Positions 25,626-54,612 of a stretch of 64,000 nt of DNA are shown piece after piece; within the stretch, counting starts at the first letter, position 1; each line of letters begins with the position of its first letter. Below the pieces are notes generated by a model. The model was not told the origin of the DNA. It did no database searches and saw only the letters and a list, made by a program, of their open reading frames with translations. The position numbers and the translations under genes were made by a program. The stretch lies in the IMG/VR virus record IMGVR_UViG_2831971958_000015; one strand, written 5' to 3'. Source of the stretch: an uncultured virus (IMG/VR IMGVR_UViG_2831971958_000015). Lineage: Duplodnaviria > Heunggongvirae > Uroviricota > Caudoviricetes.

Positions 25626-25854
25626 TCTGTTTTACCTCTCTTTCCTGCTTAATCACAATACGCCTGCTGCCGGGCTGCTGTATGACCGCCTCAACATGCA
25701 GATAGGCAGGCAGCAATACTGCGCTGCCCGCTCTAAGCTGGTACTCTATGCTTTCTTTCATTTTTCGGTAGTCCTCTGCTTTCGCTGCCTTGTCGCAGCC
25801 TATGAATACCGTTATTTGCTGCTTACTCTTCTTTTTCCGCTGCCGCCTGTTCAT
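25594..25854 (-). CDS. Hypothetical phage protein
   Basis: Co-oriented ORF. Confidence 0.55.
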   Translation of the reverse strand: MNRRQRKKKSKQQITVFIGCDKAAKAEDYRKMKESIEYQLRAGSAVLLPAYLHVEAVIQQPGSRRIVIKQEREVKQNELQAMEKEV

Positions 25855-25908
25855 TGCCTGCCCCTCTTTCCGGCGCTGCCGCCTGTCCTATCTGGTAATC
25901 GTCAATGC

Positions 25909-27192: not shown

Positions 27193-27197
27193 TTCCC

Positions 27198-27968
27198 TTA
27201 CCTCGCTTTCCCTGTGTATCTGGTTACGAATTTCTTATAGTCCTGCGCAGCTCCGCAGCACGGGCTGTACTCATAAATCGGTTTGAATAAAAACGTACTC
27301 TCTGCCACTTTCCCGGAATATCTGATAACGCCCAGTAAAGAATAGCTTTCTTTTTCTGTCTCTAACCACTCCCGCCCGGCTGCCTCTCCGTCCGTGTTCT
27401 GATATGCCGTAACCAGAACGCCCAGCAGACGCAGCGCCGGGTTAAACTGTCTTGCGTCCTCTATCTGATCTGCCAGAATGTCTAAGCCCTCTAACGCCCA
27501 CTCGTCTATTTTTACGGGTACTATAACCTCGTCTGTGACCGTCAGCGCATTTACCACGTTAAGCCCTATGTCTGGCGGGTTATCAATAATGCAGAAATCG
27601 TAATAAGCGCCCACTGCGTCCAGCTGTGCCAGCCTCTTATACCGTTCTATCTGGTTTCCTGTCTCTTCCGTCGTCAGCTGCCACGTAGCGCCCATAAGTG
27701 ACATGTTCGCAGAAACAATGTCTATCCCCTCGTAATCTGTCCGCTGTATCAGCTCTGCTGCCGCCTGCCATTCCCCGGAAAGCAGTTTCGTGATCGGCGC
27801 TACGCTCTCCGCATCATATCTGCCGTATGCCTTGCTTAAATTCCCCTGCTTGTCGTTATCCAGCAACAGTACCTTGTAGCCCCTGCGGTACAGCTCGTAT
27901 GCCATATTTACCGCTGTAAAGGTCTTTGCTACCCCGCCTTTTAAGTTCAACAAACTTATAACTTTCAT
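27198..27968 (-). CDS. parA: ParA-family ATPase
   Basis: NLKGGVAKT, DNDKQGN, IIDNPP. Confidence 0.95.
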   Translation of the reverse strand: MKVISLLNLKGGVAKTFTAVNMAYELYRRGYKVLLLDNDKQGNLSKAYGRYDAESVAPITKLLSGEWQAAAELIQRTDYEGIDIVSANMSLMGATWQLTTEETGNQIERYKRLAQLDAVGAYYDFCIIDNPPDIGLNVVNALTVTDEVIVPVKIDEWALEGLDILADQIEDARQFNPALRLLGVLVTAYQNTDGEAAGREWLETEKESYSLLGVIRYSGKVAESTFLFKPIYEYSPCCGAAQDYKKFVTRYTGKAR

Positions 27969-28019
27969 TCTCTGCCTCTCTTTCTTGCGCCGCCTCTGGG
28001 CGCAGCTGCTTAATATGCT

Positions 28020-28310
28020 CTATTCTTTCGTGACCTCTGTTTCCAATGCCTGCCCGCAGTTCTCGCAGAAATTAGATATTTTAAAGCCCGTAAGTTTCCG
28101 ATCTGCCACAATCCAGTTACATACAGGACATTTATAGGTTTCATAGTTCTTTAAGCCTTTCGCCGCCAGCTTTTCTGCCTGCGTCCCCTCAAAAATGGTT
28201 GTTTTCCTCGGTTCCATTTTCCGGGCTTTCTTCTTTGCCTCTTCCGCTGCGCAGTGCGTACAATCCCTGCCGCAGTTCTCATAAATCTTACAGCCTATTC
28301 CTTGCCCCAT
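28020..28310 (-). CDS. Zn-ribbon hypothetical protein
   Basis: CPVC..FCENCGQAL. Confidence 0.6.
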   Translation of the reverse strand: MGQGIGCKIYENCGRDCTHCAAEEAKKKARKMEPRKTTIFEGTQAEKLAAKGLKNYETYKCPVCNWIVADRKLTGFKISNFCENCGQALETEVTKE

Positions 28311-28705
28311 ATCTGCCCCGCCTCTCCTAAATCCTTAATTCGCAGCAGATACTTTTCTATCAGCTCTGCTGCCGCCTGCCAGCCATAACATACCGCTGTA
28401 AAATATCCCTGCTGCCGCAGGAACCTTAACCAGCCTTTCTGCTTTGCCGTCGTGGTATTCTTCCCAGCCTTAAGCTCTATGTACAGCCCGTGGTACTCTC
28501 CCCGCGCTACTGGTAAATGAATATCCGGCACGCCTGCTTTTACTCCCTGCCTCTTTAGCGCCGTTGCTGTCGCCGCATCACGCTTGCCGCCGTTTGGTAC
28601 ATGGTACATATATTCCAATTCCGGCATACGTCCCAGCTGATACCCCGCCCAGCTAAATAGCGCCTCTTGGTGTCCGCTCTCGTCGTCCAGCCTAAAGTTT
28701 CTCAT
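28295..28705 (-). CDS. VRR-NUC domain nuclease
   Basis: HVPNGG..GVKAGVPD..LYIELK. Confidence 0.9.
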   Translation of the reverse strand: MRNFRLDDESGHQEALFSWAGYQLGRMPELEYMYHVPNGGKRDAATATALKRQGVKAGVPDIHLPVARGEYHGLYIELKAGKNTTTAKQKGWLRFLRQQGYFTAVCYGWQAAAELIEKYLLRIKDLGEAGQIWGKE

Positions 28706-29186
28706 GCCCTCGCCTCTCTTTCCTATATTCCCTGTACAATGCTTTCCAGCGCTCCTTGCTTAACCGCCTTTTGTAGCATAAATACCGTTCTGCTTTCCTG
28801 CTGTACTCTGCCAGCTCTTTTGCCTCCTCTTCTCCTTTACCGCCTGCTGCCACAATCCCGTAAAGCGACGGGCTTATTATTCCCAGTTGCCTTTTGATCT
28901 CATTTTCGCAGATACAGCGCGGCGTTTTCGGTCTGCGTCTCTCCATGTATTCCGGGTAAAATATCTGCATTTTCTTTCTCTCTTTCCTGCCTACTGTGTC
29001 CCAGCTGCATATACTGAAATACTCACACCATAGGCAGCAGTGCTTACAGTTCTTACCATGCCGGAATAACCAGTGTATAAGCCTCTGCCTCATTTCCTGC
29101 GCCCCTTTCTGTCGTCTATGCCGTTCCAGTATTCCCAGTTCCTCGTATCCTCGCTGGCATGTGCTATAGCCACTGCTGCCAGACAC
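28692..29186 (-). CDS. Hypothetical phage protein(s); start uncertain
   Basis: Co-oriented ORF. Confidence 0.4.
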   Translation of the reverse strand: MSGSSGYSTCQRGYEELGILERHRRQKGAQEMRQRLIHWLFRHGKNCKHCCLWCEYFSICSWDTVGRKERKKMQIFYPEYMERRRPKTPRCICENEIKRQLGIISPSLYGIVAAGGKGEEEAKELAEYSRKAERYLCYKRRLSKERWKALYREYRKERRGHEKL

Positions 29187-29255
29187 ATTACAGCGCCCGC
29201 CAGTACCAAAAGCACCACGCCCACGCCTATTACCACAATCCGTACATACTGCATC

Positions 29256-30023
29256 TTATCCCCCCTCTCCCTCTAATTTGACTAATGTATATCTGAAATA
29301 CCCGTAGCCGTAATATTCCGGGCTATGTACTCCCTTGCTTATGCTGTCCTTGTCAACGTAATATCCCTTTATCGCCCTCGGCTCTGCTTTGAACCATTGC
29401 CGATCTGAAATTATCCGTATTTCCGGCACTGGTCTTACAAGGTTCTTGCTGCTATTCCAGCGTTTGCCCTGTAGCGCCCCGTCCTCTTCTTTCCTGTGCT
29501 TGTCCGTGTACTTAATCAGATAAGCTGCCAGATCGGCATAGTTGCCGCTGTCGTCCAGAGGAAAGACTTTCACCCGGTTATGCCCCTCATACGCCTTATA
29601 CCAGCACTGCTGCAATATCTTTGTATCTATCTGGTTTATAACTAAGTGGTGGTGCCTGGCTCCCTTGTCCCCGATCTCCATAACATGAATATACTTAAAC
29701 TCTATCCCAGCCTTTTTGTACTCTTTCCGGCACTCCCTTAGAAATATATCCATGTCCTGCCGCATCTGCTCTTTTGTCCGTGGCGGCTCCCCTTTCCTGC
29801 GTATGTAGTCCAGCACTAAATGATAGTCCCCATATCCAAAATTAGCATTTATCAGAATCCTTAACTTTCTTTCTGCCTGCCTTGTATTGATCTTTTGCTG
29901 CTGCTCTGTGGTGGGCTTTACCTTATCCCCCCTCTTTATCCCCTGCTTTTTATATCTGCTTGTAAAATACCTCTCTACCTCTATGGTCTTACCCGCCCTT
30001 GTTATCCTCTCAACGTATGGCAT
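29256..30023 (-). CDS. HUH-family rolling-circle replication initiator
   Basis: Motif I HLVLDY, motif II HHHLVI, motif III AAYLIK. Confidence 0.8.
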   Translation of the reverse strand: MPYVERITRAGKTIEVERYFTSRYKKQGIKRGDKVKPTTEQQQKINTRQAERKLRILINANFGYGDYHLVLDYIRRKGEPPRTKEQMRQDMDIFLRECRKEYKKAGIEFKYIHVMEIGDKGARHHHLVINQIDTKILQQCWYKAYEGHNRVKVFPLDDSGNYADLAAYLIKYTDKHRKEEDGALQGKRWNSSKNLVRPVPEIRIISDRQWFKAEPRAIKGYYVDKDSISKGVHSPEYYGYGYFRYTLVKLEGEGG

Positions 30024-30060
30024 ATATTTTTACTCCTTTTAGGTCTATCTGGTCGGAAAG

Positions 30061-30200
30061 CTAATAGTTTTATCAAGTGGTAAAACGGGCTTGCGCCCGC
30101 GTATTACTTGACATTTCGCCATACAGTGATATACTGGATATAGGTTGTAAAAGCTGTATAGCTTAGCCCCTATGGTATTCCCGTACCGTAGGGGCTATTA
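30061..30200. promoter_or_regulatory. Candidate double-strand origin plus antisense RNA unit
   Basis: Minus-strand CGGGC-GCAA-GCCCG hairpin then CTTGATA (30077-30071); plus-strand TTGACA/TG-TATACT promoter at 30108..30135; hairpin at 30164..30197. Confidence 0.6.
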
Positions 30201-30223
30201 AATTATTCTCATTTAATGCGAAT

Positions 30224-30430
30224 TTACAGGGCTGCTGCTTTCCGCTGCCTCTTAAGGTTTCTGATCTGCTCCAAAAGCCCTTTTTCTTTCTGTGCAAGCT
30301 CTTTGTGCTGTTTCAGCTCCTTGTAGTCGTCCCATAGGCTACGGAAAATAGCAATGCTTTTCCCGTTTCTCCCGTGGCGGCTCAACCTGTTTGCCTCGTT
30401 CCTTAATACTGCTCTCCTTAATTTTCTCAT
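30224..30430 (-). CDS. Hypothetical basic protein
   Basis: Co-oriented ORF. Confidence 0.55.
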   Translation of the reverse strand: MRKLRRAVLRNEANRLSRHGRNGKSIAIFRSLWDDYKELKQHKELAQKEKGLLEQIRNLKRQRKAAAL

Positions 30431-30936
30431 TCTCTAATCGCTCCTTTGCTATAATGTGTTTCTGCATATTCATAAGCCCGTTTATAAGGCTCTGCGCAGC
30501 AAAATAATGTACAGGTATGGAAATGCCTACCTTTGCAGAAATCGCAGGCGTGCAGCTTTGCGTAGCACTCTATAACTTCCTTTTTCCGCTTACGGTCATA
30601 TTCCAGCTTGTATGCCAGCTTGTCCGCGTTTACTACCTCAATCCCCAGACAGTCTGCCGTCTGTATTTCCCGGCTCATTCCCTCACTAATTCCATACTTA
30701 ACGCCTGCTATTACAAATTCGCAGCATTTAAGCAACGCTAAGCCTGCCGCCATACCCGCCGCCCGCTCCTGTAGCTTGTCCTCATTTAAGCATTGCGTCA
30801 TGTATAAATGCGGCGTGATCGGCGCTAAGCCCGCCTCTATTGCCTGCTTTGTAAGCGCCTGCGCATACTCTATGTGCCTGTCAAGCTCTGCGCCGTCCTT
30901 TGCCCTGTACGGGCTGCATATGTATACTGTCCTCAT
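30427..30936 (-). CDS. DUF4406 / nucleoside deoxyribosyltransferase-like protein
   Basis: VYICSPY..PITPHLY..ISEGM..EI. Confidence 0.7.
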   Translation of the reverse strand: MRTVYICSPYRAKDGAELDRHIEYAQALTKQAIEAGLAPITPHLYMTQCLNEDKLQERAAGMAAGLALLKCCEFVIAGVKYGISEGMSREIQTADCLGIEVVNADKLAYKLEYDRKRKKEVIECYAKLHACDFCKGRHFHTCTLFCCAEPYKRAYEYAETHYSKGAIRE

Positions 30937-31274
30937 TCCTGCCCGCCTTTCTCAAATCGTTCTATAAATTCCTGCTCTGTTTGCCATGAAAGCGGGTTCT
31001 CTACTTCCCGCTCTTCCCAACACTCGCCTACTGCCTCGTCCTCGTCGAAAACAAAACGTATATAAGCGTGCGGGTTTTCCTCGTCCTCGTCTGGTATCAG
31101 CGCACTTAAGCTGTAAAATGCTGGCACACCCTTAAAGCTGTATGTCTGTGGGTTTTCCTCTGTCGCCAGCCTCATAATGCCGTAGGCGTTGCTTTCCAGA
31201 ATAGCGCCCCGTTCTACTACTTGCTGCTTTGTCAGCGTGCAGGCGGGATTGCCGCAAAAATCACACATTGCCAT
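30933..31274 (-). CDS. Hypothetical phage protein
   Basis: Co-oriented ORF. Confidence 0.55.
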   Translation of the reverse strand: MAMCDFCGNPACTLTKQQVVERGAILESNAYGIMRLATEENPQTYSFKGVPAFYSLSALIPDEDEENPHAYIRFVFDEDEAVGECWEEREVENPLSWQTEQEFIERFEKGGQE

Positions 31275-31998
31275 CCTCTCCTATTTTTTTAATGAAACTT
31301 ACTGAAATCTCGTATGCCGTCTTCTGCTTGAAAAAAAAAAAAACAACTATCATATATTCCCGGCTCTGGCATCTTCCCAGCAGCTTAACCTTATCGCCTG
31401 GCAGCCAGCCTGCTACCTCGTCCGCGTTCTCCTGCCAGCAAATACAGGGAATATAGCAGCTTGTCCCTGTAAGCACATTCTCTACCTTTACGAAAATATC
31501 AGAAATGCGTTTCCCTCTCGGCGTTTCCCGGTATGTAGGCTTATACGCCAGCTCTCCCATAAGCGCTATGTCATTTTGCAGCATTGCTTTAGGGCTTAAG
31601 CCTATGTACTCTGCCAGAATGAATACCAGCACTTTACCGCTCTTAAAATCTTTAAGCGCCTGCTGCCGCCCGGATATTAAAAGCCTGCTGCCCGGCAGGA
31701 AATAATTTTCAAGCCGCAGCCCGTCCCCGGTCTTTCCCCGGTCTACTGCCGCCTCTGTAAAGGCTACTGCTACCTCGTCAATAATGCCGCTTGGTCTTTT
31801 CGTCTCGATCTTTGCCAGATAACCATTGAACCGCAGCCCGCATATGTCCGTTACCTCTTCCAGCTCCGTAAGCTCTCCTGCCAGCCCCGCTGCGTTGCTT
31901 ATCCTGCCTCTTTCCGTCAGATCGTCCAGAATCCCTGCATTAAGGTCTGCCAGAAAGTCCGGCTTTTTATCCTGCCTTTTGTTCCGCTTTTTGCTCAT
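31261..31998 (-). CDS. ssb: ssDNA-binding protein (tandem OB folds); 3' end corrupted by adapter
   Basis: R.SG..D; P.YRETP.G.RI.D..YIPCICW..G..QSREY..AYE.SV. Confidence 0.8.
   Translation of the reverse strand: MSKKRNKRQDKKPDFLADLNAGILDDLTERGRISNAAGLAGELTELEEVTDICGLRFNGYLAKIETKRPSGIIDEVAVAFTEAAVDRGKTGDGLRLENYFLPGSRLLISGRQQALKDFKSGKVLVFILAEYIGLSPKAMLQNDIALMGELAYKPTYRETPRGKRISDIFVKVENVLTGTSCYIPCICWQENADEVAGWLPGDKVKLLGRCQSREYMIVVFFFFKQKTAYEISVSFIKKIGEDGNV
31307..31343 (+). other. Illumina P7 adapter plus poly-A (assembly artefact)
   Basis: ATCTCGTATGCCGTCTTCTGCTTG (reverse complement of CAAGCAGAAGACGGCATACGAGAT) followed by 13 A. Confidence 0.95.
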
Positions 31999-32257
31999 AC
32001 TTTGCGTGATCTCCTTTCCCGCTATAACTTATCAATATTTCTATTGCCCGCTTATAGCACGCTATTTCGTCCTCTTCCTTTACTTTGCAGATACAGCGCC
32101 CGCGCCTCTCTCCCACATACTCCCAGATTTCAATAAAGTTATTGCCGTATATGTCAAAGTGCATATGACACCTTAAACCGTGGCTTTTCTGTATCGGTCT
32201 GTATATCTGGTAAAATTTATTTATAAGTGCGCTGCGTTCCCCGTCGTTTTCTCCCAT
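31967..32257 (-). CDS. Hypothetical phage protein
   Basis: Co-oriented ORF. Confidence 0.6.
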   Translation of the reverse strand: MGENDGERSALINKFYQIYRPIQKSHGLRCHMHFDIYGNNFIEIWEYVGERRGRCICKVKEEDEIACYKRAIEILISYSGKGDHAKYEQKAEQKAG

Positions 32258-32266
32258 ATGCGCCCC

Positions 32267-32584
32267 TCACTTTTCCGGCATCTGATATAAGCGCGGTATC
32301 ACTGCTGCCATAGGCGGCGTAGCCTCGCTGCCTATCAGTAAGCCTGTGTTGCCCGGCGCATATAAATACCGCCCGCATACGCTCTGTATCTCGTCTATGA
32401 TCTCTATACAGCGCTCTTTGCTTTCGTATATCCCTAGCGTGTACATTGATGTTGCGTCCATATTCAGCATTATTCTGTTTTCTTTCATGCCCGCGTTTGT
32501 AAATTCTTTATACCTTATCCCGCATGATTCTTTGATCGTATAAAGCCCCTCTTTGTCCTGGCTGCGTATGTATACTTCACTCAT
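32267..32584 (-). CDS. Hypothetical phage protein
   Basis: IRSQDK..LG.YESKER..E..DEI pattern. Confidence 0.65.
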   Translation of the reverse strand: MSEVYIRSQDKEGLYTIKESCGIRYKEFTNAGMKENRIMLNMDATSMYTLGIYESKERCIEIIDEIQSVCGRYLYAPGNTGLLIGSEATPPMAAVIPRLYQMPEK

Positions 32585-32599
32585 TGTCTGCCTCGCTTT

Positions 32600-33244
32600 C
32601 TATCTCTCTCCAAATATTGCTATTGCCTCTGCTAAAATTTCTTGCGTAGGCAGATAGCAAATTTCTGTATTCTGGTAATCTGTATGGTGTGTTAAAAAAT
32701 ACTCTTCGCACGCCTGCTGCTCTGTCAGCCCCTCTAACATCAGCGCCCAAATTATTTCCCTTTCCTCTTCCACAAGCGCCCTGCCGTCGTTAATGATCTC
32801 CATGTTTAAAGGCTGCTCTGCTTTCGCGTTTATTTCCTGCAAATACCAGCCCGCCTGCTTATACTCTTCTAAGCGCTCTGGCGTTAATATGCTGTACTCG
32901 TCTGGGAAAATCTTTACTTCATGCGGCGTATAGATTTTTGCGCACTGCCTGCCGTACTCGTCCACTCCTACCAGTGTTTTTATCTCCGTACCGCTCCAAT
33001 TTCCCAGCTTATCTTTAGTGGCAGCTTTTCCCTCACGCACAAAGGGTACAGCCCAGTAAATCCCGTAAAGCTGCGGCGCTGCATACTCCGCTACTGGCAG
33101 GCTCTTAATAACCATTACCCAGTTGCCCGACGTAATAAGTGTGCGCTCGTCCCGTCTTTCCCTGCTACCGTCGCCCCATTCATCTACATAGTTTCTTTTA
33201 AATCCGTACTCGTCTACTGCTGCCTCTGTCTGCTTTCTTCCCAC
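32600..33244 (-). CDS. Hypothetical phage protein
   Basis: GTG start with GAAAGAGAGG RBS. Confidence 0.65.
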   Translation of the reverse strand: MGRKQTEAAVDEYGFKRNYVDEWGDGSRERRDERTLITSGNWVMVIKSLPVAEYAAPQLYGIYWAVPFVREGKAATKDKLGNWSGTEIKTLVGVDEYGRQCAKIYTPHEVKIFPDEYSILTPERLEEYKQAGWYLQEINAKAEQPLNMEIINDGRALVEEEREIIWALMLEGLTEQQACEEYFLTHHTDYQNTEICYLPTQEILAEAIAIFGER

Positions 33245-33269
33245 TTCTCTACCTCTCTTTCGTTTCCCG

Positions 33270-33566
33270 CTAAAAACTGCTATCTATAACCATTTCCTTA
33301 GTGAATACCAGATACAGCCCCAGCGGTACTGTAATGATCGCTATTGTTGCGTCGCCGCCTGTCAGCATAACCGCCAGAATAGTAAACAATAAAAGGAATA
33401 TGCCCGTTAAGCGCTGCTTAAGGAAATACTGGCGGCGCTGCTGTCGCCTGCGCTCCCTCTGCCTGTCCCGGTGTAACCGTTCCATATAATCAGATACAGC
33501 CGCCTTGCTGGTTGTATCTGTGTAAATAATCACTGCATACCTCATGCCCTGCCCTACTTCCTGCAA
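33270..33566 (-). CDS. Hypothetical membrane protein
   Basis: Two C-terminal TM helices (GDAT motif). Confidence 0.6.
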   Translation of the reverse strand: MQEVGQGMRYAVIIYTDTTSKAAVSDYMERLHRDRQRERRRQQRRQYFLKQRLTGIFLLLFTILAVMLTGGDATIAIITVPLGLYLVFTKEMVIDSSF

Positions 33567-34477
33567 TCATAGTCTGCAAAATCTTTGCAGCTGTTAAAGA
33601 TAATTCTGTTATTTACCCAACGCTGTAAGCGCTTAAGCCTATGCCCGGCTGGTATATTCTGCTTATCATAAAGCATTACATACGGTGCATACCCCAGATC
33701 ACGCAGAGTATATACCCGCTCTAAATCCTGCTCAAAAGTGGTATTGAAATTACATAGAACGTATACGCCCAGCTTTTTTCTTTCCCAGCCCGTGATTTCC
33801 CTAAATTCTTTAAATTTCGGTATGATCGCCTCTTTGTCCTCGTACCTGTCCCACGCAAAATGTATGCGTTTTATCTTCATGCGCTTTATGTACCCCGCTT
33901 TTTCCTGCGTCATAATACGAATATCGCAGCCCTGCGAAAAGTCCACCCATGCGCCGCTGTCTATCAGCTGATCGCTTAAGCCTCTCCACTCTTTACAGGC
34001 AAATAGGTTAGCATCTAAAAGCACTATGTTTTTCTGTCCGCGCCAGAACTCCGAAAGATCAGCTACTTTCTTTGCAGCCCGCCCCTCTTTCTTCCCCACT
34101 ATGCAAAAGTCGCACCCTCTGGGACAGCCCCTTGTAAGGAATCCGTAGGCTGTTTCTTTTACCTCTGGTATCTTCTCGAAGTAAATAGAATAGTCCGGGT
34201 ATATGTGTTCTATCTCTTCCGGCAGCTCTGCGCCGCCGTCCGGGTAACTGTACCCTGTGCCGCCTCTTATGATCTCCTGCGCATTTACCGGGTGCTGGTA
34301 ATCTGGCGTAAAGGTAAATACTTTGCTCATGTATACCCGGTCTGGCGGGTTAAGCCATGCTGTAAGCGGGTTATGCCAGCCTACGCTATCGCCCCGGCTT
34401 TTGTGATATGCCGATATTTTCATAAGTGGCAAATTAGGGAACCCGTGACCGTCTACGTCTATCAGCTCTACCCTCAT
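33554..34477 (-). CDS. Radical SAM / Fe-S oxidoreductase
   Basis: FPNLPLMKIS; TRGCPRGCDFC (CxxxCxxC). Confidence 0.85.
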   Translation of the reverse strand: MRVELIDVDGHGFPNLPLMKISAYHKSRGDSVGWHNPLTAWLNPPDRVYMSKVFTFTPDYQHPVNAQEIIRGGTGYSYPDGGAELPEEIEHIYPDYSIYFEKIPEVKETAYGFLTRGCPRGCDFCIVGKKEGRAAKKVADLSEFWRGQKNIVLLDANLFACKEWRGLSDQLIDSGAWVDFSQGCDIRIMTQEKAGYIKRMKIKRIHFAWDRYEDKEAIIPKFKEFREITGWERKKLGVYVLCNFNTTFEQDLERVYTLRDLGYAPYVMLYDKQNIPAGHRLKRLQRWVNNRIIFNSCKDFADYDCRK

Positions 34478-34791
34478 TTCCTGCCGTCCTCTTTTCTATA
34501 GCGGCAGCTGTCGGTATGCCTGCTGCCGCTGCCGTGATATATTCCTTGCCTTGCCAAATCCCTTAAACTCTCCCTCCGGGCGGCGCTCTCTGTCTCTTCA
34601 CTGCTGCCGCTCTCCTGTTCTGGCGTAGTTTTACCGTATGGGCGCTTTTTCGCCTTAAAAAAGCTGCTTAAAAACTTGTTGACCGTCTACATACTCTCTA
34701 GCTGGTATGACCGCTGCTATTTTTCTACGGTATACAGATAACAGCTTTTCGCCTGCTGCATCTGCCGCAGGCTCGCCATGCCTGCTACAAA

Positions 34792-34866
34792 TACGCCCTG
34801 CTGGAATCGAACCAGCGCCCCCGCTGTATGCCCGGCTGCGGTATTCTCCCACTGAATTAAAGGCGC
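34792..34866 (-). tRNA. tRNA-like element with non-canonical, enlarged anticodon arm (pseudo-tRNA or mimic)
   Basis: Acceptor GCGCCTT/AGGGCGT; D-stem ATTC/GAAT; T-arm GCTGG-TTCGATT-CCAGC; 21-nt anticodon arm; no encoded CCA. Confidence 0.6.
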
Positions 34867-34890
34867 TTAATGGCGGCAGCGCCGCCTATG

Positions 34891-35274
34891 TCAAAATAGA
34901 AATCCCTTATCTATCAGAAACTTTATCCAGTCGCAGCCCGTCACGTCGTCCCTTTCTATAAATTTATAAAATTCCTCTTTAGTCGTTACGTTATCCTCTG
35001 CTAAAAACTTCTTTGCTATTGCTACTGCATTTGTTTGAAATACATGCTCTGCATAGAAAGCCTTTTCTATTGTTCCGTAATCATTGCTGCTTTTCGGTGT
35101 ACGCATTTCCACTACTACCATAGGCTTATTATTCTTTTTATTTCTGGCTCTCCTTATAACTACTGCCTCACTGAATAACCAGCCATTCCAGCCGTACCGT
35201 TGCGGTGCAAATTGAGTACGTGGCACTTGTACCAGTTCCCCTGCTTTCAATTTCTTAAAATCTATTTTTTTCAC
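34891..35274 (-). CDS. Hypothetical early protein
   Basis: GTG start with strong RBS. Confidence 0.65.
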   Translation of the reverse strand: MKKIDFKKLKAGELVQVPRTQFAPQRYGWNGWLFSEAVVIRRARNKKNNKPMVVVEMRTPKSSNDYGTIEKAFYAEHVFQTNAVAIAKKFLAEDNVTTKEEFYKFIERDDVTGCDWIKFLIDKGFLF

Positions 35275-35295
35275 GTTTCTACCTCTCTTTCGTTC

Positions 35296-35592
35296 TTAAA
35301 TACAGTCTCTATATTCCGGCTTTCCAGCCCAGTATTTCAGATAGTCAGTAAATGTACTGTTGCCGCTTTCCAGCTCTGTAAATGCTGCCTCTGCCTCTTC
35401 ATTACTGGGAAACTCAAAACTAAAACGGTAACTTTCCCCTGCTTTCGGCGCAAACTGCCCTTTATGCGTTGCCTTGCTTTTCGGGTAAAATGCAAGCGTA
35501 CTGCCATACGGCATAAAGCTATAGTTTTCGCTCCATTCCTCTATTTGAATATCTACACCGCCTGCGCTCTTTCCAGTTTTTAATACTTTCAT
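35296..35592 (-). CDS. Hypothetical early protein
   Basis: ATG start with strong RBS. Confidence 0.65.
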   Translation of the reverse strand: MKVLKTGKSAGGVDIQIEEWSENYSFMPYGSTLAFYPKSKATHKGQFAPKAGESYRFSFEFPSNEEAEAAFTELESGNSTFTDYLKYWAGKPEYRDCI

Positions 35593-35622
35593 GGTCTTAC
35601 CTCTCTTTCGTCCCCTCTTTGG

Positions 35623-35823
35623 TTAAATTGCCCGCTGCGCCAGTTCTGCGCTGTACTGCTGCCGCTTTCCGTTCTCTGCCCCGCCTCTTTGCAGCTCCCG
35701 GTATAAAGTGCCTCTGTGTACGCCTACCGCATCAGCTATAGTCTCTGCATTACTGCCAGCCTTACACATAGCCTCTATTCTCTTCCTGTCCTCATAACTT
35801 AGCCTTTTGTACTTCCTTGCCAT
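35623..35823 (-). CDS. Stand-alone IS30-type HTH protein
   Basis: YKRLSYEDRKRIE..IADAVGVHRGTLYRELQRG..YSAELA, collinear with the transposase N-terminus (IADMLHVHRSTIYREIKRG..YSPDIA). Confidence 0.85.
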   Translation of the reverse strand: MARKYKRLSYEDRKRIEAMCKAGSNAETIADAVGVHRGTLYRELQRGGAENGKRQQYSAELAQRAI

Positions 35824-35952
35824 TGTCCCCGCGCTCCTTTCCTGTTATTGGATAAAAAAATAGTGCGATAGAGTTTTTTAAGCTCTACCGCACTATGCTT
35901 TTACTATTATCTACCGTAAAAAAATAAATGCGGCAGAGGCTTTAATACCTCT

Positions 35953-35978
35953 TGTCGCATTTAATTTTAAAACTTATC
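35953..35978 (-). repeat. IS30-like 26-bp terminal inverted repeat (prophage 1 end)
   Basis: GATAAGTTTTAAAATTAAATGCGACA; length and inner end resemble E. coli IS30 IRs (..CGCAACA); abuts the IS630 truncation. Confidence 0.65.
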
Positions 35979-36085
35979 CATCTGCAGCGTATTGTTTTTG
36001 AAGTTGCTTTCTTACGGATTATGGATTTAAGCTCCTTGTATTCATCTTCCGTAAGCTTGATTACATATTTTCTGGGTCTTGCCAT
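35979..36085 (-). pseudogene. IS630-family transposase N-terminal fragment, interrupted by prophage 1
   Basis: Hand translation MARPRKYVIKLTEDEYKELKSIIRKKATSKTIRCR; probable IS end TA|GTGTAGTGACA near 36174. Confidence 0.7.
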
Positions 36086-36238
36086 AGGAATCACCGCCGT
36101 TTTTTCTTAGTATATACCAAAACGGCTGTATTTACCAGTATAATTTGTCTATATATCAACATGTCACTACACTAGTATAATCCACTTTAATTAGCTTTAT
36201 GTTTAAAAATATGATATAGTGGTCTTATACAGTAGGGA

Positions 36239-36275
36239 GGCCGTAAAAAATCCAAACATTTGGATTTTCTCAGCC
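36239..36275. repeat. Palindromic IS-like end abutting the truncated integrase
   Basis: GGCCGTAA-AAAATCCAAA-CA-TTTGGATTTT-CTCAGCC. Confidence 0.4.
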
Positions 36276-36643
36276 ACTCACATGCCAGTTTGTTTATCAA
36301 CCAAGGCTGTGATGCACTTATTCTCGCTGACAGGCTGGGACACGAAAAGGTATCCACAACACTGAATACCTACTCGCATCTGTTTCCGCACAAACAGCAG
36401 GAACTTGTCAGCAATCTGGAACAGCTTGCGGCAACCGTTGGTGTTACACCGACACCGGAGCCGCCAACGAGTAACCCTTTACTTGAAACTATGGGAACTT
36501 CCTATAATGATGACACGGCTGACAGTTTAGCTACTTCAGATACAGTATGCGCCAATACAGGACTTCCATACGGACCGGCGCCACTGCCAAAGGAAACAGC
36601 ACCGGGAAAAGTTATCCCTATGCCCCAAAGAAAAGTTATTTAA
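36272..36643 (+). pseudogene. C-terminal stump of a tyrosine integrase
   Basis: HSHASL..RLGH..STT.NTYSHL; the LRH motif and everything upstream are missing. Confidence 0.85.
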
Positions 36644-39617: not shown

Positions 39618-41429
39618 TCAGTTCAATATCTTCCCATATTCTTCATCAAGGGCAATCCATCCGTCTTCCTTAGTCTCGTAGGACTTCAGCAATCCCCAGA
39701 GTTTCGCCCCGGCCCCATCTTTGGTCTTTACGATAGTGAAGGTACCTTTGCCGGTATAGACAGCCTGGCCATTCTTCTTGTGATAATCAAAAGTGGTTCC
39801 CGCCCCTTTCCGAATTCGTAAATCAGAAATGGTTACTTGGAACTTAAACTCCCGATCTGTTACGGCGGAAGATATGCACGGGTATACTTCATTTCCAGAA
39901 TCATCAAATACTTTATACCCGCTATTCTGCTTGCAGAGTTCAATGGCGTTATTCTGATCTTTAAATGCGCCAATCTGGCTCCCGGAATCTACCCAATTCG
40001 TGCGGACACGATAATACCCCGTCCCGGCCGTACTTGCTTTCTGTTCTTCCGTTGCCTTAAAAGAGACATAATCGGGAATAGCTGTGATAAACAGACCGCT
40101 TTCCAGCTTATACCACTTCTCGTCTGCAGAAATGCCGGCAACAACAAAAGTTCCCTCATGCACAATCTGATCCACCTCTGCAGTGATGCTCGGCGCCTTT
40201 CTGATATTCAGTCCATCGACGCCCTTATAGACGACTGTCACGGAGCCATTCAAGGCATTGATCTTCTGCCCGCTGGTATCATCACTCGCAATATCCACAG
40301 GTACCCAGGGTACGGTTGTGATATCTCCGCCGGCCATTGCCTTTTTAACATCTTTTCGGAACTGATCCATAGAAAGGCCATATCTGCTCCAGATATGCTC
40401 CACATCACCATGGTTAGAGGCAATCCCCTTCACATTCCCCTCGTGGTGGCTCATCAACACATTGCTGTCCTCCGGATTGAATCCAAACTTCTTGCAGATA
40501 TGCGCAAAGAACTGTACTGCATTGGCATATGTGGCCAGCACATGGGATTTTGTGTTCGCTCCATTTCCCGTTTCGATCCAGGTGGCGCCGCCGGTATATT
40601 TAATCGAGGCCGGCTCGGTCATCTCGATACTGATTAGGCTATTGTTTCCGCTGCCATTACGGCCGCTTCCGCAGTGCCATCCTTTCATGTTCCAAGGAAG
40701 CAGCTGGTACACAACAGCATCTTTCCCCACCACTGCATGAACACAAACCGAAGCACTGCTGCGCTGCCAGTTCTTTACAAAAACCAGAGGATCCGGCTGT
40801 GGACACCCAACGCTGTGGAGCATTCCTCCTTTCAGCGTAATGCCAACGCCTGCTTTATAGCACGGATTCTGTGTTGCCATTTTTTCGATAATAGTAATGC
40901 TCATTTTTTCCTCGCTTTCTGTGGATTCAACCACTGCATCAAACTTGGTAAGGCAAAACCTCTCGATGATGCCGCATACCTTGGACACATACGATACATC
41001 CGTGGCATAGCCACCATCCTTAATTATCTGGATAGCCGTTTTATAGTCCTTTTCCCCTTTCAGACCAGCATATCGCAGCGTATTTCCATTCATAGCACCG
41101 TTCAAATAGCAGGAATGATCCCTTACGCTTGATTCCATATCCGGGTACCTTCTGAAATCTGCCGTGACGGTATATTCTTTTCCGTCGGGATCCTGTTCCT
41201 TTGTCTGCTTGGTATATTTGGAGACGCCGTCCCACGCACTGTCCCAGGTGTTCCCGCTCAAAGAACACTTCATGCCAAAAAAATTATTGGCATTCAAAGC
41301 AAGTTCAGTGGTTCCATATCCTGATTCCAAAATTGCCTGTGCAATAGAAACGGAGGCGAGTATTCCGCTCGCCCCCATATCTTTTACAGCACATTCACTT
41401 ACTGCCTGAATAAATTCCTGTTCTGACAT
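39618..41429 (-). CDS. Endolysin (glucosaminidase + Amidase_2 + SH3-like domains)
   Basis: IAQAILESGYG, NNFFGMK, GYATD; MLHSVGCPQP, GWHCG, ASNHGD. Confidence 0.9.
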   Translation of the reverse strand: MSEQEFIQAVSECAVKDMGASGILASVSIAQAILESGYGTTELALNANNFFGMKCSLSGNTWDSAWDGVSKYTKQTKEQDPDGKEYTVTADFRRYPDMESSVRDHSCYLNGAMNGNTLRYAGLKGEKDYKTAIQIIKDGGYATDVSYVSKVCGIIERFCLTKFDAVVESTESEEKMSITIIEKMATQNPCYKAGVGITLKGGMLHSVGCPQPDPLVFVKNWQRSSASVCVHAVVGKDAVVYQLLPWNMKGWHCGSGRNGSGNNSLISIEMTEPASIKYTGGATWIETGNGANTKSHVLATYANAVQFFAHICKKFGFNPEDSNVLMSHHEGNVKGIASNHGDVEHIWSRYGLSMDQFRKDVKKAMAGGDITTVPWVPVDIASDDTSGQKINALNGSVTVVYKGVDGLNIRKAPSITAEVDQIVHEGTFVVAGISADEKWYKLESGLFITAIPDYVSFKATEEQKASTAGTGYYRVRTNWVDSGSQIGAFKDQNNAIELCKQNSGYKVFDDSGNEVYPCISSAVTDREFKFQVTISDLRIRKGAGTTFDYHKKNGQAVYTGKGTFTIVKTKDGAGAKLWGLLKSYETKEDGWIALDEEYGKILN

Positions 41430-41437
41430 ATTTTTAC

Positions 41438-41797
41438 CTATCCCTTTGTTCTGTAGAAGCGTTTCCAGATATCAATCAGGTAATCCCATCCTTTACAGCA
41501 GATAATCGCCACCAGGAAGGCTGCAAAAACAACCGCCACAAGGTAATACCAGACAAACGCAATCCCCGCATATGAGATATATGCAAAGAATGCGATTGTG
41601 CAGATGATGATCGACAGAGCCAGCACCTGGAGAGACGTAGGAATCTTGTTAAGGATTCCGATCTCCTTTGTAAATTCCGTGATCACAGAGATAAGGGTGC
41701 AGATGACCGCCACCACAACCAAAATCACCGATGCATTCGAGATAATAAATTCCATGTTCATAAATATCCTCCTGTTTGATAAGTTAATAGATTTCAT
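41438..41797 (-). CDS. Holin-like membrane protein
   Basis: Three TM helices; adjacent to endolysin. Confidence 0.7.
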   Translation of the reverse strand: MKSINLSNRRIFMNMEFIISNASVILVVVAVICTLISVITEFTKEIGILNKIPTSLQVLALSIIICTIAFFAYISYAGIAFVWYYLVAVVFAAFLVAIICCKGWDYLIDIWKRFYRTKG

Positions 41798-42113
41798 GTA
41801 CGCTTTGCTCTACAAAAAAGTCCTTCTGCTCATGCTTGATTTTCCGGGCATATTCCAGAGCCGCATGCATATCGCCATTGCAATGCGCATCTGGAATCCT
41901 GGATACGGCTTCTGCTGTCGCTTCCCCCAGGGCGATTGCCGCCCCAATGCTTTTTACCATGAGTATCTCGTTCTTTTCTCTGGCAGCCTCCTTTTCATCC
42001 TGCCTTTTTTCCCGCTTCTCCAAATGTTTTTGCAGCATCCAAAAGCAAAAACCTGTAAACGCTGACGGAATACTCATGGCCACAATCAAAGCCATCGGAT
42101 CCATTATCCTCAC
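41784..42113 (-). CDS. Lysis-cassette membrane protein
   Basis: N-terminal TM; ALGEATA..HCNGDM..AL. Confidence 0.65.
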   Translation of the reverse strand: MRIMDPMALIVAMSIPSAFTGFCFWMLQKHLEKREKRQDEKEAAREKNEILMVKSIGAAIALGEATAEAVSRIPDAHCNGDMHAALEYARKIKHEQKDFFVEQSVHEIY

Positions 42114-42148
42114 CTCCCCTCTATAAAAAATTGCATTAAAAAAGAGCC

Positions 42149-42388
42149 TTACGGCTCTAATTCAGCACTGGTTTCTTTATACTGCTCCATAACCTCCCGG
42201 ACGATTGCCATATCCTCTTCCAGCTTTTTATCTGTAAACGCCTGGTCATTCTGTAAGAGTTTCAAGTCCGTCGCCTGCCTGGCAACAATTTTCCCCAGTC
42301 GGTATATGATTTCATCCTGTTTTTCCACCATATCCATATAGAGATCCAGAAGTTCTAAAAAATTATCTTCATCCATATGAAGTACCAT
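42149..42388 (-). CDS. Small coiled-coil hypothetical protein
   Basis: Co-oriented ORF; VEKQDEIIYRL. Confidence 0.6.
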   Translation of the reverse strand: MVLHMDEDNFLELLDLYMDMVEKQDEIIYRLGKIVARQATDLKLLQNDQAFTDKKLEEDMAIVREVMEQYKETSAELEP

Positions 42389-42421
42389 TCCTTTCTACTG
42401 AATTAGCCCCCGACTTTACAG

Positions 42422-42673
42422 TTACAGCCCCTGCTCTGCAGCATCAATTTCCTGCTGGAGTTCGTTGATCCTGTCCCTGACCTCCTGCCGGGCATCCATC
42501 AGAGCTTTTGTGTCATATGGATCTGCTTCCTCTCTCATGCGGGCCTCATAAGTCTTGGTAATCTTCCAGTCCCCAATATCACTCTGGGTGCTGGAAAGTT
42601 GGCTCATAAGGTTGATAATCTCCTGCTGTTTTTCCTGAACTTCTTCCGGCGTCAATGTCTTCTTTAATTCCAT
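42422..42673 (-). CDS. Tail-fibre assembly-like protein
   Basis: DW.I.K..RQ..RD.IN motif. Confidence 0.55.
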   Translation of the reverse strand: MELKKTLTPEEVQEKQQEIINLMSQLSSTQSDIGDWKITKTYEARMREEADPYDTKALMDARQEVRDRINELQQEIDAAEQGL

Positions 42674-42674
42674 A

Positions 42675-43832
42675 CTAAAATCCTCCTATCAATGTCTTAA
42701 AAAGTTTATCCAGTTCTCCGATGCTGCGGTAATTATCATAATGAACCGCATTCCCACGCCAACTTCTATAATGATGTACCGCTTCGACCCTTGACATTTT
42801 TCCTTCTGCAATGAGAGCTGCATGTTTTTTGATTCTTATGCGCTCTCTCACAATCGTATCATGATGGAGCAGCCGATACAGTTTTCCGGATTCCGTCAGC
42901 CGATATTTTACTTTCAGCCAAACAAAGGGCCTATTCAGCGGAACAATCTGCGTCTTTCTTTGGTTTATAAATAACCCCGCTTCAGATGCGATATGCTCCA
43001 GATCAGCCCTATTCTGCTTCAGCCGCTCCTTGTCATCATTGATATTATTGATATCGTCCATGTATCGCCCATAATATTTTTCGCCCCTGACAATTTTAAA
43101 GTAATTATCTATGGCATGGGGATAATACACACCGCCTGACTGAGATGTCTCCGAACCAATATTCAACGACTTATGCAATAGCTTCTCCCCCGGCCCCTGA
43201 TAATTCATATGTTCAAGGGAATTATACGGTACAGACATGGCTGCGGCATATTCTTCATCATCCATATAGGACACATCGGGAGCAAAAGCATCTATGAGCA
43301 GATCCGTCAGGGCATTTTCCTCCGGAAAATCCGTAAACTCGTGAAACTGCCCTTTCAATTCTTCATGCGGTACATTATCGAAAAATTTCGTAAAGTCAGC
43401 AAACAACGCATACCCGCCATTATAGGGCTTCAAACCTTTCTCTACCCTCTCGCGATAATGCTTATGGATATGGGTTTCAAAACGCTGTCTCGCAAAATCA
43501 TTGCCTCTGCCTTGGATGGATGCGCCGTTGTCATAGATTATGCGCCTGTGGATCTCCGGCAAGAGAATCTGCTGGTTATGGGCTTTTGCCACAACACGAT
43601 CCTCTATCGCCGGAGCCTTCACAGGCCTTACCTTGCCTCGTTCAGACAGTATAAATTCTTTGCATTTTGATGGGTGGTAAGCGCCACTCTCGATGCTCTG
43701 CTTTATTTCCAAAGTCTTGAGCATTACATTGGCCTCATACCTTTGGGTGGACGCTTTCCAATCGCTCCCGCTCCTGCATTGATCAAACGCATTTAGCAAC
43801 ACGTTCATATCTGCCACTCTGTTCATATTCAT
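42675..43832 (-). CDS. DGR reverse transcriptase (DGR2)
   Basis: ERGK.R, DRVV, DNGAS, DF..FFDN, IGSETSQ, YGRYMDD. Confidence 0.92.
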   Translation of the reverse strand: MNMNRVADMNVLLNAFDQCRSGSDWKASTQRYEANVMLKTLEIKQSIESGAYHPSKCKEFILSERGKVRPVKAPAIEDRVVAKAHNQQILLPEIHRRIIYDNGASIQGRGNDFARQRFETHIHKHYRERVEKGLKPYNGGYALFADFTKFFDNVPHEELKGQFHEFTDFPEENALTDLLIDAFAPDVSYMDDEEYAAAMSVPYNSLEHMNYQGPGEKLLHKSLNIGSETSQSGGVYYPHAIDNYFKIVRGEKYYGRYMDDINNINDDKERLKQNRADLEHIASEAGLFINQRKTQIVPLNRPFVWLKVKYRLTESGKLYRLLHHDTIVRERIRIKKHAALIAEGKMSRVEAVHHYRSWRGNAVHYDNYRSIGELDKLFKTLIGGF

Positions 43833-43975
43833 TACCTACAAAATTTAAACCCTGTTTACAGCGGACAACTGTCGTAACAGGCCGCATCATGGGACATATT
43901 CGCCCTAAGGCAGGACGCACACTCCTTCCAATCCGCACACCTGGGGAATCTTCCCTCTATAATGGGTGCGCTTGA

Positions 43976-44093
43976 AATCGGGGGCAAACCACATTCACGT
44001 TCGAGGCGTTGCCGTTGTTCGGATTGCCGTTAGCGTTCACATTGCAGAAGGTCGTCGAATTGCAGACCGACCGCAACCACCGGTTGAAGCGAC
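43976..44093 (-). ncRNA. DGR2 template repeat (TR)
   Basis: 118-bp gapless match to 44800..44917; 15 mismatches, all at TR adenines. Confidence 0.95.
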
Positions 44094-44116
44094 TATATAG
44101 TGTGTGCCCTATGGAT

Positions 44117-44698
44117 TTATTTCCTTATCTTGGCCAACGTCTTATTGTCAGCGGTACGCACACCTTTTACAAGTGCGATTTCCCGCTGTATCCGGATCAG
44201 ATACCGTTCATATTTATTGGCATCTACCGGAAGCGTCTGCCTGATATAATCCATCCAGCTTGTCAGCTGATAGCAATTTCCTATGGCCTGGTTCAGATAT
44301 CCTCTTCGTTGCGTGTATTCTGCTTCCTTCGTGATATATATGCTGTTGGCATAATACAGATTGTTCAGCAGATTCTCTAAAATTCTAAGAATAGCGCTTC
44401 TGAAATAGGATATTAGCCATTCTGGATACTGCTCCAACTCCTTTACATCGTATGTGGCATTATTGATGATGGTATCTATTTTCTGACAGTCCTCACCCGT
44501 CATGCCATACCGCTTTTTCATCCACTCCAATTCTTCCTTTGACGGTTCATCCAGCCTCACCTCCTTCAAATGCTCTCTTATCCGGGACTTCACGCCAAAA
44601 TCTCGTAGTAAAAGTTCTGTCATTTCCCGTCGTAAATTCAGGGCATTATGCAAAAATTCCATCGGACTCTCAGATCTCTTGTGTTTCGGTACACTCAT
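44117..44698 (-). CDS. avd: Avd-like accessory protein (long form, 193 aa)
   Basis: MSVP..KR.ES..EF; ANSIY..E...RR....AIG.C; between target and TR. Confidence 0.75.
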   Translation of the reverse strand: MSVPKHKRSESPMEFLHNALNLRREMTELLLRDFGVKSRIREHLKEVRLDEPSKEELEWMKKRYGMTGEDCQKIDTIINNATYDVKELEQYPEWLISYFRSAILRILENLLNNLYYANSIYITKEAEYTQRRGYLNQAIGNCYQLTSWMDYIRQTLPVDANKYERYLIRIQREIALVKGVRTADNKTLAKIRK

Positions 44699-44740
44699 TT
44701 TAACTTTCTCCTCAGAACCCCAAAATCCAAAATGTGGCGA

Positions 44741-44787
44741 CCGGCCTTACGGCCGGGACTGTATCACGGCCCACAAGGGGCCGTGAT
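44741..44787 (-). promoter_or_regulatory. Two post-VR hairpins of DGR2
   Basis: ATCACGGCCC-N5-GGGCCGTGAT (44763..44787) and CCGGCC-GTAA-GGCCGG (44741..44756). Confidence 0.75.
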
Positions 44788-45689: not shown

Positions 45690-45698
45690 TTTCTCCTC

Positions 45699-46175
45699 CT
45701 ACTTAAACTGAATTTTCTTCAACGCTTTGAAACCGTCACCATTTACAGAGACAAATCGATCTCCATCACCTGTCACCAGATCTGATATAACATTACCGGT
45801 CACGAGCATTTCCTCAAGGGAAGATATCACAGCCTCCTGCTGCACTATTGTGCCTCTCAGGCCCTCTATCTCTCCCAATGCGCTTGTCTGCTGCCAGCAG
45901 ATAGGATTCCATTCTCCGGTTGTTTCCTGCACGCATTTGTAGAGCGTATTCTGGTATAGGCAATAATCCCCCACCTGATAGGACACCTCCGGATTATAAT
46001 CTTCCGTAGACACTGCGCTCTGTTTCAACTGCTCAATCGACTGGCGATTACAGAGTGTATTCTGAAATACCTGAATCGGTGCCGTATTGACAATATCGGC
46101 ATGAGCCGGATCAGAGGTTTCTGTAATTTTTAGTGCTTCAGAAAAAATAGGAGTATTGTTTGTGTAATCTTTCAT
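45699..46175 (-). CDS. Tail fibre adaptor with CBM5/12-like motif
   Basis: E.SDPAHA...N; YNPEVSYQVGDYCLYQNTLYKC..GEWNP..W. Confidence 0.65.
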   Translation of the reverse strand: MKDYTNNTPIFSEALKITETSDPAHADIVNTAPIQVFQNTLCNRQSIEQLKQSAVSTEDYNPEVSYQVGDYCLYQNTLYKCVQETTGEWNPICWQQTSALGEIEGLRGTIVQQEAVISSLEEMLVTGNVISDLVTGDGDRFVSVNGDGFKALKKIQFK

Positions 46176-47444: not shown

Positions 47445-47449
47445 CCCCC

Positions 47450-54610: not shown

Positions 54611-54612
54611 AT

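Follow-up and report, generated by a model that had tools for sequence, protein, structure and literature searches.

Positions 35623 to 35978 of a 64,000-nucleotide stretch of DNA (the window) from an uncultured tailed virus (Caudoviricetes; IMG/VR record IMGVR_UViG_2831971958_000015) contain the right end of a gut prophage of about 36 kb. Reading inward from the phage tip on the minus strand, this segment comprises a 26-nt terminal inverted repeat (IR; 35953..35978, GATAAGTTTTAAAATTAAATGCGACA on the minus strand), a −10-like hexamer (TAAAAT, 35964..35969), an outer hairpin with its U-run (35918..35963), an inner hairpin with its U-run (35854..35896), a short leader with the ribosome-binding site GGAAAGGAG (35824..35853), and a gene for a stand-alone helix-turn-helix (HTH) protein of 66 amino acids (35623..35823), which lies 155 nt from the tip. 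The gene is the first of a co-oriented array that runs on the minus strand from 35823 down to position 1 and ends with an outward-facing, full-length IS30-family transposase of 346 amino acids (1..1041). The phage is a member of a published class, represented by Lagaffe (2018; PMC5883640) and the IScream phages (2025; PMC12823448). We give roughly even chances to the full reading of 35623..35978, namely that it is the "left-end-like" terminus of a Lagaffe/IScream-kind prophage that integrates via an IS30-family DDE transposase and that this terminus carries one half of a split promoter, terminators, and an HTH paralogue maintained by selection. The anatomy of the terminus, its conservation, and the selection on the gene are results of sequence comparison, whereas promoter activity, termination, and all binding and regulation are inferred.

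The 66-amino-acid protein matches the Pfam family HTH_38 over residues 4–47 (E 7.8e-13, 48.4 bits against a cut-off of 27) and carries no catalytic domain. It aligns with the first 65 residues of the transposase encoded at the opposite end of the phage (24/63 identities, 38%; BLASTP E 8e-13). An earlier reading of these letters without database searches (the sequence-only reading) had described the first phage gene as a copy of the transposase DNA-binding N-terminus, and this description holds. The transposase itself matches HTH_38 (E 3.9e-12), and its match to the Pfam domain rve scores 31.8 bits, slightly below the cut-off of 32.6. It is 61% identical to the transposase of Saumur, 59% to that of Lagaffe, and 48% to that of nd4, with the Saumur and Lagaffe alignments extending over 98–99% of the length.

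We place the phage tip exactly at 35978 because a 15-bp target duplication (AATACGCTGCAGATG) stands on both sides of the phage, the reading frame interrupted here resumes beyond the other end, and contigs from other samples diverge at this nucleotide. The interrupted sequence (35979..36180, minus strand) represents the 5′ portion of a multi-copy IS630-like element, which occurs at 11 further sites of this genome. Its transposase frame is cut at 35978/35979 and resumes on a neighbouring contig, 42 nt past the stop codon of the IS30-family transposase. Many of the IS630-like copies sit at contig ends. Contigs of four other public runs from mouse gut (X8, X15/X16, and X17) depart from the window sequence exactly at 35978; their phage sequences are at least 95–99% alike and are joined to three different flanks, and uninterrupted copies of the insertion sequence (IS) also occur. 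In the RNA-library runs X15–X17, the contigs span the HTH gene, the hairpins, and the junction into three other flanks. Counting the window, at least four insertion sites are represented, and the phage inserts at many sites. The same contigs confirm the end of the 26-nt repeat, whose length falls within the range of about 20–30 bp that characterizes IS30-family terminal repeats. The inner 13 nt, or core (35953..35965, ATTAAATGCGACA), have an inverted copy outside the window, 42 nt from position 1 and past the transposase stop codon; the outer 13 nt differ between the two phage ends.

A search with the transposase returned 46 phage records, and a scan of IMG/VR returned 416 relatives, the best 80 loci of which (labelled L) were kept. 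Saumur, Lagaffe, and nd4 each have a stand-alone small HTH gene immediately on the far side of the end junction, as seen from the transposase. Among the 43 loci whose sequence continues for at least 600 nt past the transposase, 15 have the gene as the immediate downstream neighbour (15 of 67 if at least 150 nt is required), and these 15 are joined-end contigs, either circular or virion-type. Most other loci run from the transposase-end tip into unrelated, host-like DNA. Often this host-like DNA is A/T-rich, and a strong rRNA or tRNA gene promoter (TTGACA...TATAAT) follows a few tens of nucleotides downstream (L019, L023, L036, L046, L057, L058, and L090). At the end opposite the transposase, the small HTH gene was found within 400 nt in four of five provirus records; the fifth (G001, transposase 80% identical) lacks the gene, but the record stops at a gene start before the phage end and is uninformative. 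One subclade, represented by L016 (4330..4560) and L094 (1..150), has an extra small open reading frame (ORF) between the hairpins and the small HTH gene.

Joining the two phage ends is predicted to assemble a promoter. The ends of the window phage read ...TTGACATTTTCA and GATAAGTTTTAAAAT..., and with a 2-nt spacer between them they would form TTGACA-N17-TAAAAT aimed at the HTH gene, the −35 hexamer coming from the other phage end, off the window. We compared the joined ends of Lagaffe, nd4, L016, L029, L033, L035, L038, L043, L052, L062, L081, and L083. Among the 11 distinct sequences in this set, the transposase end supplies TTGACA, TTGACT, TTGAAA, or TTGCAT as the −35, and the HTH end always supplies a −10 of the form TAnnnT (TAAAAT, TAGAAT, TAATAT, TAAGAT, TAACAT, or TATCAT). 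The hexamers are separated by 17 nt in 10 distinct sequences and by 16 nt in Lagaffe. A promoter scan picked the junction promoter in L029 and L062, with 10 of 12 positions matching. Between the hexamers lie the element tips, whose sequence varies among phages. The joined forms of one clade, whose tips were set by at least 10 different prophage flanks, have the variable 2-nt spacers AT, AT, TA, AA, and GG, as in IS30 circles.

The DNA upstream of the −10 in the prophage belongs to the host and provides no −35. Integration separates the two halves, so the early promoter would exist only in the circular or virion genome, where the joined ends would direct transcription toward the HTH gene and the whole co-oriented array behind it. 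That excision might be coupled to early transcription had been suggested in the sequence-only reading, which had not noticed the split promoter; the conserved hexamers now lend the suggestion strong sequence support. The leader (35824..35853) contained no minus-strand promoter by the promoter scan and offers no space for one between the last hairpin and the ATG, with only 30 nt, including the ribosome-binding site, from the inner U-run to the start codon. A candidate promoter between the two hairpins of L062 (TTTACA-18-GATAAT) was rejected, having no conserved counterpart in the window or in other phages.

Directly behind the −10 lie the two palindromes that the sequence-only reading had pointed out, at 35860..35896 and 35925..35963. 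Their arms contain four copies of TGCGRYA (35864–70 and 35929–35 on the plus strand; 35886–92 and 35953–59 on the minus strand), and the last of these lies within the IR core, as had also been noted. The 7-mer is common, occurring 72 times in the window against 37 expected, and the extended 10-mer AWRTGCGRYA, with 4 copies against 3.2 expected, shows no enrichment. It is thus the clustered hairpins, and not the motif, that exceed chance, and we rejected TGCGRYA as a specific motif because it is frequent throughout the window. On the minus strand, the inner hairpin (14 bp, followed by U7 at 35854..35860) folds in its context with −24.4 kcal/mol (z −8.2), and the outer hairpin (15 bp, its 5′ arm formed by the IR core, followed by U7 at 35918..35924) with −19.1 kcal/mol (z −4.4); none of 200 shuffled sequences folded as well. 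Terminator calls were made with RNAfold and criteria of our own, the only criteria that the hairpins passed; in this analysis, the inner hairpin has −19.6 kcal/mol and seven U in the next 8 nt. A search of Rfam gave nothing at gathering score in 35500..36300. The inner module is a diverged duplicate of the outer one (direct repeat D1, 72%).

A hairpin on the IR core with a U-run behind it is found in all 15 phages compared, with folding energies of −12 to −25 kcal/mol and at least five U in the next 8 nt. It begins 0–3 nt after the −10 in 13 of the 15 and overlaps the −10 by 3–4 nt in L043 and L062. A second hairpin is present in only 10 of the 15, each time with a U-rich tail, which makes 25 of 25 hairpins followed by a U-run (at least five in 8 nt), always on the gene strand. 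Conservation in relatives, which had been put forward as a check, holds for the first hairpin and, as described below, for the gene, but not throughout for the second hairpin. The inner stems are wholly different between phages while their pairing is preserved, and compensatory changes occur in the basal pairs (from GC to UG or UA in six sequences, from UA to CG in one, and from GC to AU in one). RNAalifold, applied to a MAFFT alignment, recovered no more than the six basal pairs, as the loops and inner stems could not be aligned. Like intrinsic terminators, these structures combine a stable stem-loop containing G+C with a U-run immediately behind it on the transcribed strand. The palindromes are thus probably intrinsic terminators rather than dyad operators, although the two roles do not exclude each other. 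Such terminators would halt transcription entering from host DNA, which in the window would come from the interrupted IS630 gene; a promoter-like site of this element at 36167..36140 points into the phage. Because all genes point one way, the hairpins are in the circle the first terminators after the transposase gene, and there they would halt read-through out of that gene.

The interpretation favored by the sequence-only reading was that the four TGCGRYA half-sites are operators for dimers of the small HTH, serving as a prophage repressor or directionality factor; the hairpins would then be a by-product of dyad symmetry. The half-sites do match the IR core, the expected target of a transposase head, since the N-terminal domain of IS30 transposase binds the IRs. 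The inner hairpin reproduces the whole outer module (−10 plus core) in diverged form, including TGCG, in the window, Saumur, L052, and L062; a residue of the recognition helix tracks the core sequence, as described below; and upstream A-rich runs mirror the T-runs, so that the palindromes run on into the flanking A and T runs and are extended by them. However, a dyad operator should have inverted half-sites at a fixed and conserved spacing, and across the 15 phages the distance between the conserved C of one arm and the G with which it pairs in the other varies between 24 and 35 nt, a poor fit to one dimer geometry. The whole stem is complementary despite unrelated inner sequences, which a two-half-site operator does not need. 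The number of sites also differs, with a single hairpin in 5 of the 15 phages, and the second hairpins of the L016 clade and of L043 lack the core motif. Moreover, the gene is expected to be silent in the lysogen, which suits a maintenance repressor badly. With one or two hairpins per relative, variable arm spacing, and a U-run behind each hairpin, the four half-sites do not form a conserved operator set. The observations made from the sequence alone are thus confirmed and their interpretation is partly supported, but the operator model is the weaker reading and, in our judgement, an unlikely one.

Less probable still is that the hairpin module supplies extra transposase-binding, sub-terminal repeats that make the two ends asymmetric for the formation of copy-out circles, as in Mu and Tn7, with the U-runs being incidental A/T-rich spacers. 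Additional copies of the core do occur at the HTH end only, the transposase end having one; the module of −10 plus core is duplicated in L052 and L062; and end asymmetry is described as intrinsic to copy-out/paste-in transposition (excerpt of PMC7780238). Against this, a U-run stands behind 25 of 25 hairpins, always on the gene strand, and some inner hairpins (L016 clade and L043) have no core motif at all. IS30 itself is not known to need sub-terminal sites.

The small HTH is a family with its own entry among phage proteins. The 66-amino-acid protein matches PHROG 11420 ("DNA binding protein"; E 9e-18), which is separate from the transposase PHROG. An AF2 model of the protein (pLDDT 86.8) shows a three-helix HTH with a C-terminal helix, and a fold search of this model against the PDB gave nothing at E ≤ 0.001 and only generic HTH domains, with the Mu transpososome at rank 49. 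Across 16 small HTH genes (120 pairs), the mean proportion of differing synonymous sites (pS) was 0.81, compared with 0.35 for nonsynonymous sites (pN), so that synonymous sites are saturated while the protein sequence is kept. In the 11 least-diverged pairs listed, dN/dS ranged from 0 to 0.57; L033 and L035, for example, have a dS of 0.99 and a dN of 0.03. An alignment of 12 small HTH proteins contains 11 invariant and 7 nearly invariant columns, and the protein is exactly 66 amino acids long in 20 of 36 protein clusters (E ≤ 1e-5). The position of the gene, its ribosome-binding site, and its start codon are kept among the relatives. Judged by these sequence comparisons, the small HTH is a conserved gene under purifying selection and not a decaying one, and for this reason we dispute the published view of the short IS30 copy as decay. 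That the gene is a functionless remnant of a second IS30 copy, left behind in the manner of a composite transposon, is the reading given for the inward copies of IScream phages, which measure 183–4,175 nt and are truncated or fused and without a catalytic domain (PMC12823448), and it could draw on the longer C-terminal tails in L081, L083, and L095, but it is very improbable for a protein that has been held to this length, sequence, and position over saturating synonymous divergence.

Where might the small HTH act? Joining the ends places the IR cores on either side of the promoter, one stopping 2 nt short of the −35 and the other beginning 1 nt past the −10, so a protein bound to them would occlude both the promoter and the transposase substrate. 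By analogy with IS1 InsA or the Mu repressor, the junction promoter is the most likely place of action: the HTH would bind the IR cores, damp the promoter, and compete with the transposase at the joined ends. Within each phage, the small HTH and the transposase agree in the residue that follows a conserved "VH" in the recognition helix, and this residue changes with the sequence of the IR core (19 rows): CGACA cores go with R/R, CGAAA cores with I or V paired with V or S, and CGCACA cores with H/H. This agreement is suggestive of a DNA specificity shared by the two proteins.

The gene should be silent in the lysogen because its promoter is split and terminators lie upstream, and its product is accordingly more likely to regulate the circle state than to maintain lysogeny as a repressor. 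It would act through negative autoregulation and by competing with the transposase, as for IS1 InsA, IS911 OrfA, and Mu Ner and c. In agreement with the sequence-only reading, there is no CI/Cro pair at the HTH end; a profile match to an XRE-type HTH lies near the transposase end (1841..2035, minus strand).

These elements can be combined into a tentative model, which we hold to be doubtful as a whole, in which phages of the IScream/Lagaffe type would maintain lysogeny without a classical repressor and operator at the early promoter. Integration would cut the promoter and the circle would rebuild it, the terminator would sort transcripts by origin, and the HTH would commit the circle to lysis. 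Transcripts from outside would hold the whole stem and stop, whereas those from the junction promoter would begin inside the lower stem and escape. By calculation, a start 6–8 nt after the −10 lies inside the lower stem of the first hairpin and leaves only weaker stems, 2–12 nt from the U-run. The first terminator might in this way spare junction-promoter transcripts; the second hairpin, where present, stays whole, and leakiness or antitermination are possible ways past it. Bound to the joined ends, the HTH would then block re-integration and tune the promoter as the circle enters lytic growth.

Several observations weigh against the reading of this terminus as a split promoter with terminators and a regulatory HTH. 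A promoter directly followed by terminators is an awkward arrangement, and 10 of the 15 phages have a complete second terminator before the gene. The two strands of the palindromes fold about equally well, and a simple terminator scan flagged no hairpin in the window, L029, or L062. The conserved hexamers could in principle be transposase contacts instead of a promoter. For the window phage, the joined promoter is put together from its two ends and a spacer known only from relatives, and no circle junction of this phage was found in the contigs of the four runs. The agreement of helix residues may reflect only shared descent within about four clades. The target duplication of 15 bp exceeds the 2–3 bp of IS30 proper. 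Longer duplications are known from some IS30-family members. Finally, no such end was recognizable within 330 nt of the transposase stop codon in 8 of the 80 loci (L021, L064, L066, L069, L070, L071, L073, and L077). The transposase matches of seven of these loci (L021, L064, L066, L069, L070, L071, and L077) span 1.37–1.52 kb, compared with about 1.03 kb, and are directly followed by other genes; in L069 and L071, the following gene is a homologue of the radical-SAM-like gene described below, a different arrangement within the family.

Behind the HTH gene, the array continues with small genes of unknown function, a radical-SAM-like gene, and genes for a single-stranded DNA-binding protein (SSB), Rep, a VRR-NUC nuclease, and ParA/ParB-like proteins. 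These are followed by genes for terminase, portal, protease, capsid, tape measure, and tail proteins, a diversity-generating retroelement (DGR), holin, lysin, the XRE-type HTH, and the transposase. Structural, packaging, and lysis genes, including Dit, thus lie between the transposase and the small HTH, as is characteristic of the class. The replication and partition genes occupy 25909..30023 (a ParB-like protein with DUF3850, a ParA-type ATPase, the VRR-NUC nuclease, and a rolling-circle-type Rep, REP_ORF2-G2P), and the presence of ParA/ParB and Rep in a transposase-integrating phage hints at a stable extrachromosomal phase. The DGR (4705..7663) comprises a reverse transcriptase (4705..5838), bAvd (6123..6479), and an Mtd-like target protein (6521..7663). 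The transposase gene is directly preceded by a terminator-like hairpin and T-run (1075..1105), which leave about 30 nt to the start codon, and transposase expression in the lysogen may depend on read-through of this hairpin.

One join inside the phage is an assembly artefact. At 31297..31345, the reverse complement of the Illumina P7 adapter (ATCTCGTATGCCGTCTTCTGCTTG) and a poly-A run truncate the SSB gene (31261..31998), and the genome copy breaks into contigs C46 and C23 at this site. A 14.7-kb DNA contig of run X8 that reaches 11.4 kb to the left of 33500 suggests that the phage is contiguous across it. Outside the phage, 36260..36643 encodes only a C-terminal fragment of a tyrosine recombinase (Phage_integrase, 21.2 bits, below the cut-off), probably a remnant of another element. 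A mixed islet between two phage regions (36917..39499) encodes a GIY-YIG nuclease, two HTH_26 proteins, an amidoligase_2 protein, and a GGACT/AIG2-like protein. A second co-oriented run of large ORFs on the minus strand (39618..64000) is probably another prophage; at its start stand a glucosaminidase-amidase lysin (39618..41429), the only product scanned, and holin-sized ORFs.

The combination of a split junction promoter, end-embedded terminators, and a selected HTH paralogue is, as far as searchable, undescribed. Searches of the main texts of PMC12823448 and PMC5883640 found no mention of terminal repeats, a junction promoter, terminators, or a regulatory short copy, although their figures and supplements may hold more; searches of the literature for junction promoters with prophages and for IS30 transposases with temperate phages likewise returned no description of such an end architecture. 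The main texts searched are also silent on how IS30-mobilised phages choose between lysogeny and lysis, and a split promoter rebuilt on circularization, with terminators at the end and a paralogue of the transposase head, would offer a concrete and cheaply testable model for this choice. Treating the "truncated IS30" as a working gene also gives a different view of how these phages arose as composite-transposon-like elements. In addition, host DNA beside an insertion could complete a hybrid promoter with the outward −35 of the transposase end, and neighbouring host genes could be switched on by this hexamer.

Among known systems, the closest are the phages of the same class. Lagaffe, a Faecalibacterium phage, has an IS30-type integrase and flanking direct repeats (Cornuault et al., 2018; PMC5883640). 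The IScream phages were named in 2025 (Wirbel, Hickey et al., Nature); they are reported to be common gut residents, one catalogue containing 1,780 candidates, and their short inward IS30 copy was likened to a decaying IS (PMC12823448). Laboratory lysogens of such phages include Blautia hansenii ATCC 27552 (PMC12823448), Faecalibacterium prausnitzii A2-165 with Lagaffe, and the host of Saumur. Like IScream, Lagaffe, and the Clostridium phage Saumur (ON453901), the window phage is a tailed temperate phage with an outward-facing full IS30 transposase and a truncated IS30-like ORF at the other end. It likewise has a DGR, and a scan of 52 ORFs within 1..35978 revealed neither a tyrosine nor a serine integrase (no match to Phage_integrase or to a serine recombinase). 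A circular form and particles also belong to the description of the class, and relatives of the window phage exist as joined-end viral contigs.

The predicted promoter has its nearest counterparts in IS elements. The junction promoter of IS911, Pjunc, was reportedly described by Ton-Hoang in 1997. In IS30, an outward −35 and an inward −10 abut with a 2-bp spacer and drive the transposase (Dalrymple, 1987, quoted in PMC9333248). Like the promoter quoted there, the phage version is predicted to be strong only in the joined form with a 2-bp spacer and to be destroyed by insertion. Unlike in IS30, the transposase of the phage lies about 36 kb downstream, so that the first product would be the HTH head, in the place that the transposase N-terminus occupies in an IS, followed by the early genes. 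The phage further differs from IS30 in having terminators right behind the promoter and a target duplication of 15 bp instead of 2 bp.

The sequence-only reading knew of no characterisation of such a switch; this overlooked the IS30 junction promoter (PMC9333248), the published phage class (PMC5883640 and PMC12823448), and the precedents in Mu, InsA, and OrfA. The small HTH resembles these three in being a separate small protein homologous to a transposase DNA-binding domain, and by analogy it is predicted to bind the ends and to repress both transposition and a promoter in or near them; it has no sequence relation to the three and, unlike Mu c, is expected to be off in the lysogen. The precedents are the Mu repressor c together with the MuA N-terminal domain, IS1 InsA, and IS911 OrfA. 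The hairpins also have a parallel in IS10 and IS50, which are guarded against outside transcription by a fold-back RNA structure. Here, too, a structure containing the end sequence would act on transcripts from outside, while transcripts from the element's own promoter would start inside it. The phage structure differs in being a predicted terminator rather than a trap for the ribosome-binding site, with a by-pass that is a calculation and leaves the second hairpin unexplained.

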